Counted from the stretch's first letter, positions 27,074 through 63,099 are shown. The stretch: DNA of 63,099 bases from a virus (IMGVR_UViG_3300045988_090624); one strand, 5' to 3'. The notes: generated by a model not told the origin, from the letters alone. Program-made: numbers and translations.

Positions 27074-28975
27074 ATGGCACAGTATAAATCAGCGGTCATT
27101 ACTAAAAAGGGTGTAGCCCTGATGGGTAAGATTATGTCAGGAAAAACAAAACTTAATTTTAGTAAAATCTGTACATCTGATACTACTTACAAACAGGAAC
27201 AGTTAGCCGGACTTACATCCCTGACAGGGATTAAACAGGAGGCTCTGATTGCAGATATTACAAAGAAAAATGATGCTACTGTACAGGTAAGCACTCAGTT
27301 TTCTAATACGGCTCTTAAGACGGGCTATTATGTTAGAACTGTAGGACTTTATGCAGTAGATCCGGCTGAGGGAGATATCCTCTACAGTGTATGTATTGTA
27401 GATGAGTCAGTATCCACCCCGGACTATATGCCGCCTTATAATGGGGTTGGTGTATCATCCCTGATTATGAACATGGTAACTACTGTAGGAAATGCGGCAA
27501 ACGTAACAGTTACCGTAGATCCAGCGGCGGCGGCTACTGTATCTCAGGTTATTGATTTACAGAATCAGATTGATGATCTGAAAGGCTATACAGGTTACAT
27601 GGATGAGGATATTTATGGAGTTGAGGTAGACTTTGTAAATAAGAAATGTACCCGTTTAGCTGGAGCTGTAGGACATTCAGAGGGAGAGTTTTTCGATAGC
27701 CTTACCCCGTGGGGAGGTAGAAAGAGAGTTATCCTTTCTGATGATGGCTATGAGCTGGGATCTTATGGGGATCCTCAGTACACAGAAACCGGAAAGCTGG
27801 TACAGGCGGTAAATGTAGAAATCACTCCGGCTAATGGAGAATCTACTCCGGCGGTAACTAAAAACTTCCCTGTAGGTACTCTGGTACAGGTTATGGTAAA
27901 ACAGCCTAAGTTTTGGGTTAAGGTTGTACCTCTCTCAATGAGTAAAGCCTCTTATGGTAGAGGTTATCAGTTTGATAAAGCCCGTTACTATGTATCTCCT
28001 GTAGCTAAGCCGGGATTTATCGTTATTGATGAATTTAAGGCGGCTAATGGACAGGAACAGGATTTCATTTACCTCTCAGCTTTTGAGGGATCTCTGTATG
28101 ATACCTCTGAGGGTGCATATATTCTGGATGATGCTCAGGTAGCAGACTTTACAGCCTCTACAGGAGATAAGCTCTGTAGTATTGCCGGAGCTAAACCAGC
28201 CTCAGGTAAAACTCAGAGCCTTACAAGAAAGAACACAAGAGCTCTTGCAGATAACAGAAATACAGGAGTTGAGGCAGACAACACAGCCGGAGGAAAGGGA
28301 TGGAGATTGCATAATATCTTTGCTCTCTCAGTAACTCAGATCCTCTTAATGGTTGAGTATGCTCACCTTGATGCTCAGGCTAAGGTTGGTAGAGGTAACT
28401 GTGATAATACAGATGATGGAGCCTCTAACATGGCTATCAATACAGGCGGTACAAGTGCTCTTGGTAACAAGTCTGGTATTGATCCGACAGGCACAAATGG
28501 AAAATGTTGTGTTTCTTACAGAGGAGAAGAAAACCTCTGGGGAAATATTTGGACATGGTTGGATGGAATTAACATTGAGTGTAAAAATATTCAGAACGCT
28601 TATGTTAATCCTGATAACCTGACTATGGCTGATGATACAAAAGAGAACTACCAGAACACAGGCTTTACAATGGCAAAAGCTGGCGGTTATGTAAGTAAGT
28701 TTGGATATGATGAGGCTCACCCTTATCTTTTCCTCCCGTCAGAAACTAAAGGCTCCAGTAACTTTGTGGGTGCTTACCATTGGTGTAATGCGGCTTATGA
28801 TGGCTTTCTGGTTGCTCGGCTTGGCGGTAGGTGGAGTGATGGCGGTAGTTGCTCGCCTTTCTATCTGCATGTGGTTAATGCCTCGGGTTCTCGTGATCGT
28901 TATATCAGCGGTCGGTTGCTGTATGTACCTCAGGCAGATAAGCCTAAATACCTTTATAAGGTTATGGCGGCTTAA
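27074..28975 (+). CDS. Tail fibre / receptor-binding protein and DGR target
   Basis: The N-terminus resembles a tail-collar fibre (MAQYKSAVITKKG...YVRTVGLYAVDP). The C-terminus ...GGRWSDGGSCSPFYLHVVNASGSRDRYISGRLLYVP contains the variable repeat. Confidence 0.85.
   Translation: MAQYKSAVITKKGVALMGKIMSGKTKLNFSKICTSDTTYKQEQLAGLTSLTGIKQEALIADITKKNDATVQVSTQFSNTALKTGYYVRTVGLYAVDPAEGDILYSVCIVDESVSTPDYMPPYNGVGVSSLIMNMVTTVGNAANVTVTVDPAAAATVSQVIDLQNQIDDLKGYTGYMDEDIYGVEVDFVNKKCTRLAGAVGHSEGEFFDSLTPWGGRKRVILSDDGYELGSYGDPQYTETGKLVQAVNVEITPANGESTPAVTKNFPVGTLVQVMVKQPKFWVKVVPLSMSKASYGRGYQFDKARYYVSPVAKPGFIVIDEFKAANGQEQDFIYLSAFEGSLYDTSEGAYILDDAQVADFTASTGDKLCSIAGAKPASGKTQSLTRKNTRALADNRNTGVEADNTAGGKGWRLHNIFALSVTQILLMVEYAHLDAQAKVGRGNCDNTDDGASNMAINTGGTSALGNKSGIDPTGTNGKCCVSYRGEENLWGNIWTWLDGINIECKNIQNAYVNPDNLTMADDTKENYQNTGFTMAKAGGYVSKFGYDEAHPYLFLPSETKGSSNFVGAYHWCNAAYDGFLVARLGGRWSDGGSCSPFYLHVVNASGSRDRYISGRLLYVPQADKPKYLYKVMAA
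28801..28929 (+). repeat. DGR variable repeat (VR)
   Basis: A 129-nt gapless alignment to 29058-29186 shows 24 mismatches, all at adenines of the other copy. Confidence 0.92.
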
Positions 28976-29011
28976 GGCTGAGGAAAAATAAAATTGAATA
29001 TTGATTGAACA

Positions 29012-29038
29012 ATAGGGAGCCTTTCAGCTCCCTATTTT
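29012..29038 (+). terminator. Rho-independent terminator after the tail-fibre gene
   Basis: ATAGGGAGC (29012-29020) pairs with GCTCCCTAT (29027-29035), followed by TTTT. Confidence 0.6.
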
Positions 29039-29057
29039 CATAGGTCACTAATAGAGT

Positions 29058-29186
29058 TGGCTTTATAGTTACTCAACTTGGCGGTAAATGGAATAATGGC
29101 AGTAATTGCTCACCTTTCTATCTGAATGTGAATAATACCTCAGGTAATCGTAATCGTAATATCAGCGGTCAGTTGCAATATGTACC
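29058..29186 (+). repeat. DGR template repeat (TR)
   Basis: This non-coding copy of the VR is A-rich. It has nine AAT codons when read in the VR frame and 38 adenines, 24 of them substituted in the VR. Confidence 0.92.
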
Positions 29187-29405
29187 CTTGTGAAAAGCAA
29201 GAAAAATTTGAAAATACTGGGATTTAGTGACCTTGCCTCTTGGCAGAACATAAAACAGACGGGAGCCTCCCGGACTGGGTAAAAAGTATGTAAAGGGGTA
29301 CTGATAAGGGGATTGAATAATCCTTGAAATACCGTTTAGGGATACCAATAAAGGTCGGTTCCCCTTTGGTACATACAAAAAATTTAACAGGGTTGGTAAA
29401 AATAA
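29187..29405 (+). ncRNA. Putative DGR spacer RNA region between the TR and the RT gene
   Basis: A 219-nt non-coding tract on the + strand with short local stems, e.g. CGGGA-gcc-TCCCG. The role is inferred by analogy with characterised DGRs. Confidence 0.4.
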
Positions 29406-30602
29406 ATGACAGGTACAAAAGATCTCTTTAATTCTATCTGTAGCATGGATAACTTATACAGAGCTTATCAAAATGCTAAATCAGGAAAAGGCTGGTACAA
29501 AGAAGTAAAGCAGATTGAGAAAAGACCGTTTTACTACTTAGCCGGACTACAGTATATGCTCAAGAATCATTTATTTAAAACCTCAGAGTATGAGATCTTT
29601 ATTTTAAATGAGGGCAAGAAAAAGAGAGATGTGTACAAGTTACCATTTTTCCCTGACAGGATAGCTCAGTGGGCTATCTTACAAGTTATAGAGCCGTTTT
29701 TAGTGGCTAATATGACAGCAGATACATATAGTGCAATTCCCGGAAAGGGAATACAGCCTATAGTAAACGATCTTAGAGGATACTATAAAACGAAACGTGT
29801 AGACGGTAAAAAGAAATCCGTGTGGGTTCCGTCAATACTCCTCAGTGATGAGGAGAATACAAGGTACTGTTATAAAATTGATCTCCACCACTATTACCAG
29901 TCCATAAATCACGAAGTCCTCAAACAGAAATTCAGAAAAGTATTTAAAGATCCTGAGCTCCTATGGTTACTGGATGAGATAGTAGACAGTATAAATACAG
30001 CTACAGAGGAGGATCTTATTGAGTTGTCTCTGTCTGGAGAGATAGAGGTTGATCCTAACACAGGGATCCCTATAGGGAACTATATGAGCCAATACAGCGG
30101 CAATTTTTACCTTAGTTCTTTCGATCACTGGGTTAAAGAAGAATTACACGTTAAGCACTATTACAGATATATGGATGATGTAGTTATATTTGCCTCATCA
30201 AAAGAGGAGTTACATGAAATTCATAGAAAAGTAACGGCTTACACAAGAGATTATTTACACCTAAATATTAAAGGCAATTATCAGATATTCCCTACAAAAG
30301 TGAGAGGTGTTGATTTTGTAGGCTACAGGTTCTTTGGAGAGTATACATTACTCAGGAAGAGTACCGCTATCAATTTTAAGCGGAAAATGAGAGCTTGTAG
30401 AAAGAAAATGGAAAATAACATACCACCTACTTACAGTGAGTGGTGTTCATTCAACAGCTATAAAGGGTGGCTTGGAAACTGTGATAGCTACAGGCTATTT
30501 AAAAAGTACATGGAGCCCCTTATAGAATATATGCAAAACTATTATGAAAGGGAGGTAAAAGATCATGGAGAAGTTTACAAATGTTATGTCCAGTGCGGAT
30601 AA
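29406..30602 (+). CDS. DGR reverse transcriptase
   Basis: YMDD catalytic motif (YYRYMDDVVIF) and the DGR-type IGNYMSQ motif ([ILV]GxxxSQ). The N-terminus ...NLYRAYQNAKSGKGW is typical. It lies adjacent to the TR. Confidence 0.9.
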   Translation: MTGTKDLFNSICSMDNLYRAYQNAKSGKGWYKEVKQIEKRPFYYLAGLQYMLKNHLFKTSEYEIFILNEGKKKRDVYKLPFFPDRIAQWAILQVIEPFLVANMTADTYSAIPGKGIQPIVNDLRGYYKTKRVDGKKKSVWVPSILLSDEENTRYCYKIDLHHYYQSINHEVLKQKFRKVFKDPELLWLLDEIVDSINTATEEDLIELSLSGEIEVDPNTGIPIGNYMSQYSGNFYLSSFDHWVKEELHVKHYYRYMDDVVIFASSKEELHEIHRKVTAYTRDYLHLNIKGNYQIFPTKVRGVDFVGYRFFGEYTLLRKSTAINFKRKMRACRKKMENNIPPTYSEWCSFNSYKGWLGNCDSYRLFKKYMEPLIEYMQNYYEREVKDHGEVYKCYVQCG

Positions 30603-30840
30603 AGTTGAGGCTCTGGAGATTACTGAGGAGACTGTAATTGTCAGATCTGGTATTACCCATGTTGAGGATCCCGGTACAGAAGATCAGCCGGGATTTACCG
30701 GGTGGAAGATTGAGACAGAGGAAGTCTATGAGAAAGATGAGTATATCAAGCTCATGGCTGAGAAAAATGATTCTCTGGATCAACAGGCTACAGATCTCCA
30801 GCTTGCTCTTGCTGAGGTCTATGAGCAGATTATTTCTTAA
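30565..30840 (+). CDS. Hypothetical acidic protein
   Basis: Overlaps the RT 3' end by 38 nt. Position is between the fibre/DGR and lysis genes. Confidence 0.5.
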   Translation: MEKFTNVMSSADKVEALEITEETVIVRSGITHVEDPGTEDQPGFTGWKIETEEVYEKDEYIKLMAEKNDSLDQQATDLQLALAEVYEQIIS

Positions 30841-33676: not shown

Positions 33677-35305
33677 ATGGTACAGGAGAAATTAAGAGCG
33701 GTATTTTATGCAAGGGTATCTACAGAGGAAGAGAGACAACTTAACGCTCTGGAGAAACAGGTAGCTGAGTGTAAAGATGCTGTTTTACAGAAAGGGTGGA
33801 AACTGGTAGATCAGTATGTAGATGAGGGCAAAAGTGGTACTCAGATAAAGAGGAGAGATGAGTACAGAAGATTATTTGAAGATCTGGAAAATGATAAATT
33901 TGATATTGTAGTTATCAAGTCACAGGACAGGCTCCAGAGAAATACTTTAGACTGGTACATCTGGATAGACCGCCTTACTACTCACGGGAAAAGGTTGTAT
34001 ATGTACCTTGAGGATACTTTCTACTCCCCGGATAACGCTCTTATCTCCGGGATCAAGGCTATCTTAGCTGAGGAGTACAGTAGAGAGCTCAGTAAGAAGA
34101 TCAACAACAGCTACAAAAGAAGAATAGAGGCGGCTAAGAACGGGGAGAAAATCTCTATAGTAAATAATTCAAGATCCTTAGGGTATGATAAAGTTAATGG
34201 TGAGCTGGTAATCAATGAGAAAGAAGCTGAGGTTGTAAGGATGATCTTTAATATGTACGCCTCAGGGGAGGGCTTGAGAGCTATCTCTAATACTCTTTAT
34301 GACATGGGATACAGGAATAGATCAGGAAATGAGATTGATCCTACTACTATCTCCAGAATGTTATCAAGTGAGAAGTATAAAGGGGTGTACGTCATTAACC
34401 AGAGACATTATGATTTTGATACAAAAAAGACTGTACTAAATCCTAAAAGTGAGTGGGTACATATTCCCGGAGCTGTCCCGGCTATTGTGGAGCCTGAGCT
34501 CTGGGATAGAGTACAGGAGATCAAAGGATCTAAAGTACAGAGTATTAAAAATGAGAAACGTGGTAGGAATTGTGGTAAGAGTATCTTTAGCGGTAAAATC
34601 TACTGTGCTAAGTGTGGGGCTAAATATTGGAGATCTTTAGAAAATGGCTACGTTAAATTTAAGTGCTCAAGCTATTCTAAGTACGGTAAGATTCCGGGTA
34701 AAGGGTGTGATAATAAATCATTCTCAGAAAATGCTCTTTACAGTATCCTACAATCCCTCTCTGAGCAGATTGTAGAGGTTAATACAGCGGAGGTAAGGAA
34801 ATCTCTATTGAGCTGGTTAGAAAGCCTCAGAGAACGCCTCAGAGCCTCACAGGGGGATGATACAATCAAAGAAGAAATCAGAAAACAGACAGCAAGAAAA
34901 GAAAAGCTCACAGATGCTTATATGGATGGTATCATAAGTAAAGAAGATTACTCAAAGAGATATAAGGAGCTGGAGAAAACTCTTGAGGATCTGAAAGATA
35001 AACTCCTCACACTGGAAGTAAATGAGGATTTACAAAGTATTGAGGAAGTGATACAAAATATAGATAAGGAGATGGAGGAATATTTACAGACTCAATCTTT
35101 CAATGAGAGCCGGGTGGAGTTCCTTAACCAGCACCTTACAAAAGTCACAGTAAATAAAGATTCTTTTCTATTAGAGTTTGATCTGATAGGAGGGGCTATA
35201 CTCACAGGGAAAGACTTTTATCTGTTTGTTGACAATCCGAGATGGTATAGCATACAAACAGATAAAAGAAATAGCGTAGATGTGAGGATTAAAATAGCCG
35301 CATAA
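33677..35305 (+). CDS. Large serine recombinase (integrase)
   Basis: The N-terminal resolvase motif AVFYARVSTEEE carries the catalytic Ser. A recombinase domain, a Cys cluster (CAKCGAKY...FKCSSY...GCDN) and a C-terminal coiled coil follow. Confidence 0.85.
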   Translation: MVQEKLRAVFYARVSTEEERQLNALEKQVAECKDAVLQKGWKLVDQYVDEGKSGTQIKRRDEYRRLFEDLENDKFDIVVIKSQDRLQRNTLDWYIWIDRLTTHGKRLYMYLEDTFYSPDNALISGIKAILAEEYSRELSKKINNSYKRRIEAAKNGEKISIVNNSRSLGYDKVNGELVINEKEAEVVRMIFNMYASGEGLRAISNTLYDMGYRNRSGNEIDPTTISRMLSSEKYKGVYVINQRHYDFDTKKTVLNPKSEWVHIPGAVPAIVEPELWDRVQEIKGSKVQSIKNEKRGRNCGKSIFSGKIYCAKCGAKYWRSLENGYVKFKCSSYSKYGKIPGKGCDNKSFSENALYSILQSLSEQIVEVNTAEVRKSLLSWLESLRERLRASQGDDTIKEEIRKQTARKEKLTDAYMDGIISKEDYSKRYKELEKTLEDLKDKLLTLEVNEDLQSIEEVIQNIDKEMEEYLQTQSFNESRVEFLNQHLTKVTVNKDSFLLEFDLIGGAILTGKDFYLFVDNPRWYSIQTDKRNSVDVRIKIAA

Positions 35306-37072: not shown

Positions 37073-37157
37073 GGCTTTAATGCTAAGATATTATATAGGT
37101 TTATGCTAATGAGGGATAAATGAGGAATAAAAACAGATCATTGAGGAGGACTGAGGA

Positions 37158-37418
37158 ATGAAAGTTATCAATGGAATAATCCACTATACAGCTACAGAAG
37201 TATCTCAGCTCTGTGGAGTATCTACTCAGACTATAAAGCTCTGGAATAAAGCAAGTGAGCAAAGGGAAGAAGCCGGGGAGGGTAGACTGATCCCGGCTCC
37301 TCACACTGAGCCAAACGGCTATAAGTATTGGAGTGCTGAGGATACTCAGAAGATTATAGAGTATGCTGGACAATCTCATAAAGAGAGATATGGTAACATG
37401 AAGAAAGAGGGCAAATAA
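37158..37418 (+). CDS. MerR/excisionase-type HTH protein
   Basis: YTATEVSQLCGVSTQTIKLWNK matches a MerR-like HTH pattern. Confidence 0.5.
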   Translation: MKVINGIIHYTATEVSQLCGVSTQTIKLWNKASEQREEAGEGRLIPAPHTEPNGYKYWSAEDTQKIIEYAGQSHKERYGNMKKEGK

Positions 37419-62661: not shown

Positions 62662-63099
62662 ATGAAAGCATTTAAAGGATTTAACAAAGACTTAACTTGT
62701 AGAGGTTTTCAGTATGAGGAGGGTAAGGAGTTCCATACAGAGAAAGCTGAGTGTTGTGAGGAGGGGTTCCATGCGTGTGAGTATCCTCTGGATTGTTTTG
62801 GTTATTACAGTCCGGCTCAGAGCGTTTTTCATGAGGTAGAGTTATCTGGAGACATGGATAGAAGAAGTGATGATACAAAGGTATGTGCTACTGATATTAA
62901 GATTGGTGCAAGAATTTCTATTGCTGGGTTGGTAAAAGCGGCTATTGAGTTCACTATGAGCAAGGTAAACAAAGAGGCAAAATCAGACGAAAGACACGGC
63001 TTTGCATCTGCGACAGGGAATTATGGAGCCTCATCTGCGACAGGGTATCGTGGAGCCTCATCTGCGACAGGGGATTATGGAGCCTCATCTGCGACAGGG
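62662..63099 (+). CDS. 5' part of the junction-spanning repeat protein (N-terminal Cys/His-rich globular domain, then GASSATGxx repeats)
   Basis: RBS GGAGATAAGGAG and ATG at 62662. It reads MKAFKGFNKDLTCRGFQYEEGKEFHTEKAECCEEGFHACEYPLDCFGYY... There is no stop before the window end, and the frame and repeat continue at nt 56 onward. Confidence 0.75.
   Translation, partial: MKAFKGFNKDLTCRGFQYEEGKEFHTEKAECCEEGFHACEYPLDCFGYYSPAQSVFHEVELSGDMDRRSDDTKVCATDIKIGARISIAGLVKAAIEFTMSKVNKEAKSDERHGFASATGNYGASSATGYRGASSATGDYGASSATG
63007..63099 (+). repeat. 27-nt tandem repeat (5' side of the array)
   Basis: Same unit as 8..142. Complete units lie at 63025-63051 and 63052-63078, with partial units at both ends. 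Confidence 0.9.

Follow-up and report, generated by a model that had tools for sequence, protein, structure and literature searches.

The 63,099-nt viral genome IMGVR_UViG_3300045988_090624 (the window; all coordinates are positions in this whole stretch) carries a diversity-generating retroelement (DGR) that consists of a 633-aa tail-fibre gene with a variable repeat (VR) near its 3′ end, a template repeat (TR) and a gene for a 398-aa reverse transcriptase (RT). We consider the locus, with a probability of roughly 0.92, to be a functional accessory-free DGR (target-VR, TR and RT) in a temperate human-gut phage of ~63 kb with a contractile tail. The VR (28801–28929) aligns without gaps to the TR (29058–29186) over 129 nt at an offset of 257, and all 24 mismatches fall on adenines of the TR, which has 38 in total (17 A>G, 4 A>T and 3 A>C; hypergeometric P = 1.3e-16). 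Homology stops abruptly on both sides, with a mismatch at 28800/29057 and no similarity beyond 28929/29186. Read in the fibre frame, the codons of the TR include nine AAT together with ATA, ACT, CAA and AAA, and the VR ends 15 codons ahead of the fibre stop codon. The TR itself is non-coding and lies within a 430-nt intergenic region, starting 82 nt past the fibre stop and ending 219 nt before the RT open reading frame (ORF). A search of both strands found no further VR within the window. An initial annotation of this DNA had described the same arrangement, and realignment, recounting and the ORF map agree with it on the ungapped repeat pair, the number and split of the adenine-only mismatches, the lack of any C, G or T difference until the homology ends, the non-coding downstream copy and its distance from the fibre stop, the AAT-rich codon content, and the 398-aa RT 219 nt past the TR with YMDD and IGNYMSQ motifs.

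The RT matches Pfam RVT_1 and PHROG 1423 (E = 9e-114) and carries YMDD and IPIGNYMSQ, the latter containing the motif [I/V/L]GxxxSQ that DGR RTs have where other RTs have QGxxxSP (PMC7826257). Its best PDB match is 8ub7 (E = 1.3e-26), from the set 8ub7–8ube of the 328-aa Bordetella phage RT, bRT, in which the residue numbering agrees with that published; enzymes of the retron, group II and DRT types appeared in the same search at E = 6e-8 or worse, the next match being a retron (6e-8). Alignment to bRT shows that the equivalents of R74 and I181, the latter being the first residue of [I/V/L]GxxxSQ, are conserved, and both residues have been reported to promote adenine mutagenesis (PMC7826257). 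The NCBIfam models for group II, Drt3a, Drt2 and retron RTs gave 70, 62, 54 and 37 bits against cut-offs of 300, 200, 390 and 235, respectively, and Rfam at gathering thresholds returned no match in the whole window, including to intron or retron RNA. With bRT as best match and both the motif and the R74/I181 equivalents present, the enzyme belongs with DGR rather than retron or group II RTs, as the initial annotation had supposed.

Signatures of activity in natural populations

The data on activity are near-identical phage genomes from other metagenomes, with RTs at least 93–99% identical; diversity values come from an alignment of 31 of these genomes, and RT codon counts likewise from 31 genomes. 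With later fetches included, 42 genomes hold 41 distinct VRs, whereas of 46 loci whose RTs are near-identical, 35 have the same TR and most of the remainder depart from it at one or two bases. Variable positions in the VRs comprise 31 of the 38 that correspond to TR adenines versus 5 of the 91 others (Fisher P = 5e-18), and these five vary as singletons or doubletons only. Nucleotide diversity is 0.136 in the VR, compared with 0.0075 in the TR, 0.0077 in the spacer between TR and RT, and 0.007 in the RT gene. Transfer of markers from template to target can be seen in two loci, one with C82T in its TR and T at position 82 of its VR (L104), the other with C109T and T at position 109 (L113); repeat positions 1–129 are counted from 28801 in the VR and 29058 in the TR, such that position 55 is 28855 and position 114 is 28914.

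The RT is under purifying selection, its polymorphic codons being 33 synonymous versus 2 non-synonymous, and those of the VR are 18 non-synonymous versus 1 synonymous with no stop codon in any VR. The 33 mutable adenines in 18 codons give a theoretical repertoire of ~7e19 DNA and ~8e16 protein sequences. A near-invariant TR, hypervariable VRs, TR mutations mirrored in their own VRs and purifying selection on the RT together form, at the level of assembled sequences, the signature of ongoing mutagenic retrohoming and thus indicate an element that is active in nature. The initial annotation had suggested read mapping to see whether VR polymorphism is confined to TR-adenine positions, and such confinement is what we find among the 42 near-identical genomes from different samples, which stand in for mapped reads. 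An identical or near-identical RT is present on hundreds of human-gut metagenome contigs.

One genome departs from the usual template. The TR of L103 (ERZ28654762 scaffold_1537) is corrupted, with 12 adenines replaced, 10 by G and 2 by T; it has the VR-specific G at position 114, while positions 120–121 remain TR-like, and its own VR keeps A at four of the 12 corrupted sites. From this pattern it looks like VR-like sequence was copied into the TR and the template is decaying in one lineage. Recurrent 12.7-kb contigs were considered as possible products of assemblies breaking at the VR, a reading that was rejected since they span the intact DGR.

Table 1. Features of the DGR locus in the 63,099-nt window
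Feature	Coordinates	Strand	Evidence
DGR target gene, 633-aa tail fibre	27074..28975	+	ORF; Pfam, PHROG, AF2/Foldseek
Variable repeat (VR)	28801..28929	+	Adenine-only mismatches to TR; varying positions across genomes 28808–28907
IMH-like 3′ end of VR (IMH, initiation of mutagenic homing), CGGCGGTCGGTTGCTGTATGTACC in most genomes	28906..28929	+	Invariant across VRs; differs from TR at 28914, 28920, 28921
Imperfect DNA hairpin directly 3′ of VR, possible target-recognition element (weak)	28928..28983	+	DNA fold
Terminator-like hairpin and U-rich tail, between fibre gene and DGR RNA	29011..29041	+	Inverted repeat I2, fold
5′ arm AGGTCACTAA of long-range TR-bracketing RNA duplex	29042..29051	+	Complementarity, fold, covariation
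Template repeat (TR), ending in putative IMH* (~29163–29186)	29058..29186	+	Alignment to VR
TR-to-RT spacer, structured 3′ part of DGR RNA; BPP-1 'Sp' counterpart	29187..29405	+	Conserved blocks, RNA fold
3′ arm TTAGTGACCT of long-range TR-bracketing RNA duplex	29224..29233	+	Complementarity, fold, covariation
Conserved hairpin UGCC-UCUU-GGCA (29234–29245), then A-rich tract GAACAUAAAAC	29234..29256	+	Conservation, compensatory changes
DGR reverse transcriptase, 398 aa	29406..30602	+	RVT_1, PHROG 1423, PDB match 8ub7

The 3′ boundary of transfer

VR positions 114, 120 and 121 are G, T and G in all 41 VRs where the TR has A, A and A, and genomes with T at TR position 121 still have G there in the VR. 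A TR marker at position 109 was transferred and a marker at 121 never was; with 114 onward fixed, transfer must end 3′ of position 109 but short of 114, within the GC-rich stretch CGGCGGTCGG. The last 16–24 nt of the VR behave, by these comparisons, as an IMH, with the TR carrying the corresponding IMH*. Since 28914, 28920 and 28921 lie 3′ of the boundary, they represent fixed IMH/IMH* differences and not sampled diversity, which qualifies the earlier treatment of the 24 mismatches: all are at TR adenines, but these three are directional markers, identical in 41 VRs.

The sequence immediately downstream of the VR can form a DNA hairpin (28928–28983) with a folding energy of −11.4 kcal/mol (z = −3.5), a stability that none of 200 shuffles reached. 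L011 and L127 retain its outer stem, CCTCAG/CTGAGG, which has decayed in L007 and is missing from relatives further away. Being confined to close relatives, the hairpin was rejected as a general target-recognition element. A small hairpin within the VR (28841–28857) arising from two fixed A>G changes was not significant (z = −1.4).

RNA structure around the template

The TR-to-RT spacer folds as RNA with −60.1 kcal/mol (z = −3.2) and contains blocks that are invariant in relatives down to 55% RT identity. Its hairpin at 29234–29245, together with the A-tract, follows the TR in 51 of the 59 related DGR loci and shows compensatory changes in three of four core pairs with no broken pair. Directly 5′ of this hairpin, TTAGTGACCT is the perfect complement (10 bp) of AGGTCACTAA, which sits 6 nt upstream of the TR, and as these arms pair across the TR, the template would be closed into a loop. 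Minimum free energy and centroid folds of 29037–29262 recover both helices independently. Covarying equivalents of the bracket duplex with other arm sequences are present in 39 of 42 distinct relatives, whose 5′ arms were located by a complementarity search; pairs of arms include AGGGCTCTAA/TTAGAGCCCT, GGTAATCAG/CTGATTACC and GGTCAGATAA/TTATCTGACC, and AGGGCACTATTTA/TAAATAGTGTCCT in crAss-like phages. In an anchored alignment (A6), 93.5% of cells are paired and 13 of 17 pairs have changed on both sides, and the covariation score of the duplex is 0.538 versus 0.171 in shuffles (0/500), with slid registers scoring at most 0.12.

In the BPP-1 ribonucleoprotein, cryo-EM revealed a 'cPRT Stop', a duplex of the sequences flanking the TR together with a stem-loop and adenosines, and the accompanying survey of this element covered only Avd-containing DGRs (bioRxiv 10.1101/2023.10.23.563531). 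Judging from the covariation, the window clade appears to keep the cPRT-stop RNA architecture without Avd, and we infer that the duplex and hairpin act like the cPRT-stop and RT-positioning RNA of BPP-1. The synthesis of cDNA would be cis-primed. Upstream of the 5′ arm, the terminator-like hairpin (29011–29036) has a 10-bp perfect stem and a 6-nt loop (fold z = −6.3) and recurs in L007 and L011, where the sequences of the stem differ.

A context-dependent excess of G

The initial annotation had taken the A>G bias of the VR to be just one sampled state. This does not hold, as G is the commonest base population-wide and the outcome is strongly context-dependent: across VRs the positions of TR adenines are occupied by G 607, A 484, T 152 and C 110 times. 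TR adenines with G or C as 3′ neighbour are represented in VRs by A or G only, mostly G, and those preceded by C almost never stay A. The excess extends to silent sites. Positions 55 and 85 (28855 and 28885), at which TCA>TCG leaves Ser unchanged, have G in every one of 39 VRs, and at fourfold-degenerate third-position TR adenines in loci with RTs 35–100% identical (including L001–L080) the VR has G in 63 of 71 cases. Protein-level selection cannot explain the G excess at such sites.

For bRT, the 3′ neighbour has been found to shape the error spectrum, with dC the commonest misincorporation and an overall rate of ~30% (PMC12875486); at that rate, near-100% conversion is not predicted by the published bRT data. 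The excess may be due to a far stronger context rule, by which the RT places dC opposite such adenines nearly always, or to a repair step that disfavours G:T mismatches when cDNA and VR form a heteroduplex and so would ratchet sites to G. We raise tentatively, as a proposal that we think could well be wrong, that in the Avd-less RT clade the outcome of adenine mutagenesis is partly programmed by sequence context, with adenines before G or C being cryptic G-encoding positions. If true, context-programmed G together with the bracket duplex, hairpin and A-tract RNA would describe the workings of an Avd-independent DGR and its differences from BPP-1.

The diversified tail fibre

The fibre has the tail-collar fibre N-terminal domain PF12571 over residues 1–153 (Pfam, E = 1.3e-5), matches PHROG 5302 'tail protein' from end to end (E = 9e-138) and is encoded after genes for Baseplate_J and Mu gp48-like proteins. 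Sequence and profile searches of its C-terminus against the PDB gave nothing significant (arylsulfatase, E = 0.86; TaqVP, E = 1.4), and a Pfam search of the C-terminal domain had no match, so it was structure prediction alone that resolved the fold. An AlphaFold2 (AF2) model of residues 380–633, built with 76 homologues that are 25–93% identical, reached pLDDT 78 and pTM 0.80, and the sole significant Foldseek matches to it in the PDB are three chains of TaqVP (5vf4; E = 7e-6 to 2.5e-5, probability 1.0). Among viral structures in BFVD, the matches are numerous phage 'tail collar fiber' proteins, with TMq reaching 0.83, and crAss-like fibre proteins, and also one TvpA-like and one sulfatase-modifying-factor-like annotated entry.

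These comparisons support residues ~380–633 being a C-type lectin (CLec)-like domain, as predicted by the model. A fold of this type had been expected for the fibre C-terminus, and the best solved structural match to the modelled region is indeed itself a DGR variable protein, TaqVP of Thermus aquaticus. The weak profile alignment of the two (E = 1.4, non-significant) aligns WGNIW-W-DG and the C-terminal GG-W...G-R variable segment. TaqVP differs in being a cellular protein and not a phage fibre, and it has ~15% sequence identity and a TMq of 0.48.

Upstream of the VR, the fibre segment 28341–28727 exists as two alleles ~88% identical in genomes that are otherwise ~99% identical. Its nucleotide diversity is 0.05–0.08, with changes on all four bases, and it thus reflects DGR-independent allelic exchange of the CLec scaffold by recombination.

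Accessory genes

Avd (or HRDC) accompanies ~74% of DGRs and is essential in BPP-1, but it is not universal. The gaps between VR and TR (128 nt) and between TR and RT (219 nt) leave no room for a gene there. Hidden Markov models (HMMs) of Avd, built from clear Avds beside distant RT relatives (26–32% identity) and recovering those at E < 1e-50, found no match in the whole 63-kb window (best E = 7.8), nor in loci L001–L146, that is, in any locus with at least 33% RT identity. The 55 small ORFs of the window had no strong Pfam match among the top 25 families listed. The description of this DGR as 'complete' in the initial annotation therefore stands for a member of the Avd-less class, but not in the sense of a locus with an avd or HRDC gene, as the 63-kb genome has neither. 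Wu et al. reported that 29% of DGRs are without an accessory gene and that lineage 3 'notably lacks avd' (PMC5758913).

Beside the RT, a 91-aa acidic ORF (30565–30840) overlaps the RT stop by 38 nt; it belongs to PHROG 18126, for which no function is given, and is kept in all close relatives. We rejected it as an Avd, being acidic, of a PHROG of no known function and not Avd-like. The RT itself has, relative to bRT, ~36 extra, partly basic residues within 124–172, between fingers motifs, and a C-terminal extension of ~26 residues (region 340–398). This extra length is common only to relatives at least 55% identical, and related but more distant Avd-less RTs are ~315–320 aa long, indicating that it does not track the absence of Avd.

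Proposed mechanism and alternatives

We predict that an RNA from ~29042 to 29405 is made in which the TR is looped by the 10-bp duplex and followed by the hairpin, the A-tract and the structured spacer. The RT would copy the TR into cDNA, misincorporating only opposite adenines, and this cDNA would replace the VR from 28801 to ~28910 at the 3′ end of the fibre gene, the invariant IMH-like end of the VR setting the direction and 3′ boundary of replacement. Up to 18 codons would thereby be varied on the CLec-like domain of the fibre tip, most likely altering which host surface structure is bound. The fibre tip would then be the part that binds the receptor, enabling the phage to switch receptors.

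Several observations weigh against this account of a functional, accessory-free DGR. No homologue of avd or HRDC was detected in the 63-kb genome, and the mechanism can therefore not be identical to that of BPP-1. The case for activity comes from comparing assemblies of separate samples and not from variation inside a single population. The complementarity search used to find the 5′ arms of relatives biases the pair counts of the bracket duplex upward; that these arms are real is indicated by their conserved (A)UAGG start and consistent position. RNAalifold suggested a candidate priming duplex between the 3′ end of the TR and the spacer, GUACCCUU (29182–29189) with AAGGGGUAC (29293–29301), which was rejected because it is no better than shuffles (z = −0.12) and has no consistent equivalent in relatives. 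The stretch from the fibre stop to the TR yielded no sigma-70-like promoter for the TR RNA, and the terminator-like hairpin lies just upstream of the 5′ arm of the DGR RNA. On the protein side, the TMq of ~0.48 to TaqVP is only moderate, and Mtd, next in the Foldseek list, is not significant (E = 1.6).

An active DGR need not diversify the primary receptor binder: the varied domain could instead engage different ligands (gut mucin glycans, capsule variants or decoys, for example) and tune adhesion or niche rather than host range. Other gut-phage DGR targets include Hoc-like decoration proteins (PMC5883640), and given the two scaffold alleles at 28341–28727, specificity may be set outside the VR too. 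Nevertheless, we regard this alternative as unlikely, given a gene that directly follows those for baseplate J and gp48-like proteins, an N-terminal domain of the tail-collar fibre type and a C-terminal fold that matches many phage tail-collar fibre proteins.

Activity cannot be shown from a single genome, and the 12 adenines lost from the TR of L103 show that decay happens, so one might suppose that the VR/TR pattern dates from earlier activity and that the element in this genome no longer homes. Such a relic is very improbable here, however, as the TR of the window is the intact consensus, the RT ORF of the window is uninterrupted, the VR differs in essentially all genomes sampled although they are ~99% identical elsewhere, and RT polymorphism is strongly skewed to synonymous changes (33 versus 2). 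We give almost no credence to the idea that the VR varies by ordinary mutation, recombination and diversifying selection beside an uninvolved RT of retron, group II or defence type. While recombination does shape the neighbouring segment 28341–28727, that segment varies at all four bases, in contrast to a VR whose variation is confined to TR adenines (Fisher P = 5e-18) and into which point mutations of the TR are copied. The weak matches of the RT to the group II, Drt3a, Drt2 and retron models of NCBIfam are likewise far below the cut-offs (e.g., 70 bits vs. 300).

Relationship to known DGRs

DGRs on the tail fibres of gut phages, including Avd-less ones, are already well documented, those with a CLec-type fibre target and no Avd being common in such phages, and as a type of system this one is ordinary. 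Its RT is probably a member of lineage 3 of Wu et al. Like lineage 3/architecture A1 (PMC5758913) and the accessory-free DGR of the crAss-like phage LMMB, which targets a tail-collar fibre and whose RT was placed in lineage 3 (PMC7290462), it has the order target(VR-IMH)-TR(IMH*)-RT, no avd, and a tail-collar fibre target with a CLec-type C-terminal VR ending in G-x-R-L. The window VR ends in ...ISGRLLYVP and those of relatives in ...GSRLCF/Y or ...GFRT, which by eye, not by profile, resembles the CLec3 SRLC/A-type IMH-encoded motif. The compact VR-TR-RT layout is found in 59 of 80 related viral loci, and crAss-like phages, whose RTs are 36–38% identical to that of the window, share the TR-bracketing duplex and the UGCC-UCUU-GGCA hairpin. 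Unlike these systems, the window phage is a ~63-kb temperate myovirus-like phage with a serine recombinase and its closest genome matches among Blautia metagenome-assembled genomes (MAGs), and its RT has ~398 aa versus ~315–320 aa in related RTs.

The resemblance to BPP-1 (mtd-avd-TR-brt) lies in the adenine-specific transfer from TR to VR into a C-terminal CLec-type tail-fibre tip, in 3′ repeat ends that resemble IMH and IMH*, with transfer stopping within GC-rich sequence, in an RT with IGxxxSQ, YMDD and the R74/I181 equivalents, and in TR-flanking RNA pairing followed by a stem-loop and adenosines (bioRxiv 10.1101/2023.10.23.563531). Unlike BPP-1, the window DGR is without Avd, has AAT codons instead of AAC, shows a strongly G-biased substitution outcome, and targets a fibre to which Mtd is not a significant structural match. 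BPP-1 has a short GC-rich hairpin after the IMH, where the window has at best a long imperfect one that is confined to close relatives. Faecalibacterium phages such as Lagaffe, Epona and Taranis (PMC5883640) are comparable as temperate phages of gut Clostridia with DGRs, several of them without detectable Avd. Among GenBank phages, the nearest RT is that of Psychrobacillus phage Perkons (45% identity), and megablast returned no match for the DGR region and only a 3% match for the structural module, to Streptococcus phage SM1.

The value of the window element lies in unusually clean evidence of natural activity and in features of RNA and mutation spectrum that can be tested for Avd-independent retrohoming. 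As the phage is very common and almost all genomes sampled differ in their fibre tip, it offers a clean natural system for studying DGR-driven variation of host range or adhesion in Lachnospiraceae phages. The mechanism of the Avd-less class has not been worked out, and the duplex, the hairpin with its A-tract, the 3′ boundary and the context-dependent A-to-G changes are concrete, testable features. These features are relevant to the question of how an Avd-free system positions and stops reverse transcription, and to the design of compact two-component DGR mutagenesis tools.

A different organization was observed in four IMG/VR loci with RTs ~37–40% identical (L017, L020, L021 and L022), in which one TR is accompanied by two VRs in adjacent small ORFs with stop-to-stop frames of ~123–168 aa. 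These are multi-target DGRs whose variable proteins are very short, unlike the single large fibre here.

Genome setting and host

The window, with a G+C content of ~40% and nearly all genes on one strand, is a complete, circularly assembled genome, as indicated by a 55-nt exact terminal overlap within 27-nt tandem repeat arrays, which might serve as an origin, a packaging site or a site of regulator binding. It encodes contractile-tail proteins (sheath initiator, tube and baseplate J), a holin, an endolysin and proteins of replication and nucleotide metabolism, and a large serine recombinase (33677–35305) adjoins the lysis module. Other genes, some on the minus strand (e.g., 37101–37379), match NrdG, ThyX, MazG and a DnaB-family helicase, and further matches are to a primase (Toprim), an SNF2-type helicase and sigma factors. 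The same phage was found inside contigs of 355 kb and 956 kb, which, together with the serine recombinase, shows that it is temperate and also occurs as a prophage.

The exact TR pattern was absent from the species-representative genomes searched, and the closest RTs in such genomes belong to Blautia MAGs (86% and 79% identity) and, at 78%, to a Butyrivibrio MAG. Going by these RT matches, the phage probably infects a member of the Lachnospiraceae. The 27-nt repeat GTGGAGCCTCATCTGCGACAGGGAATT occupies 6–155 (5.6 copies) and 63005–63099 (3.5 copies) and amounts to ~9 units at the junction.

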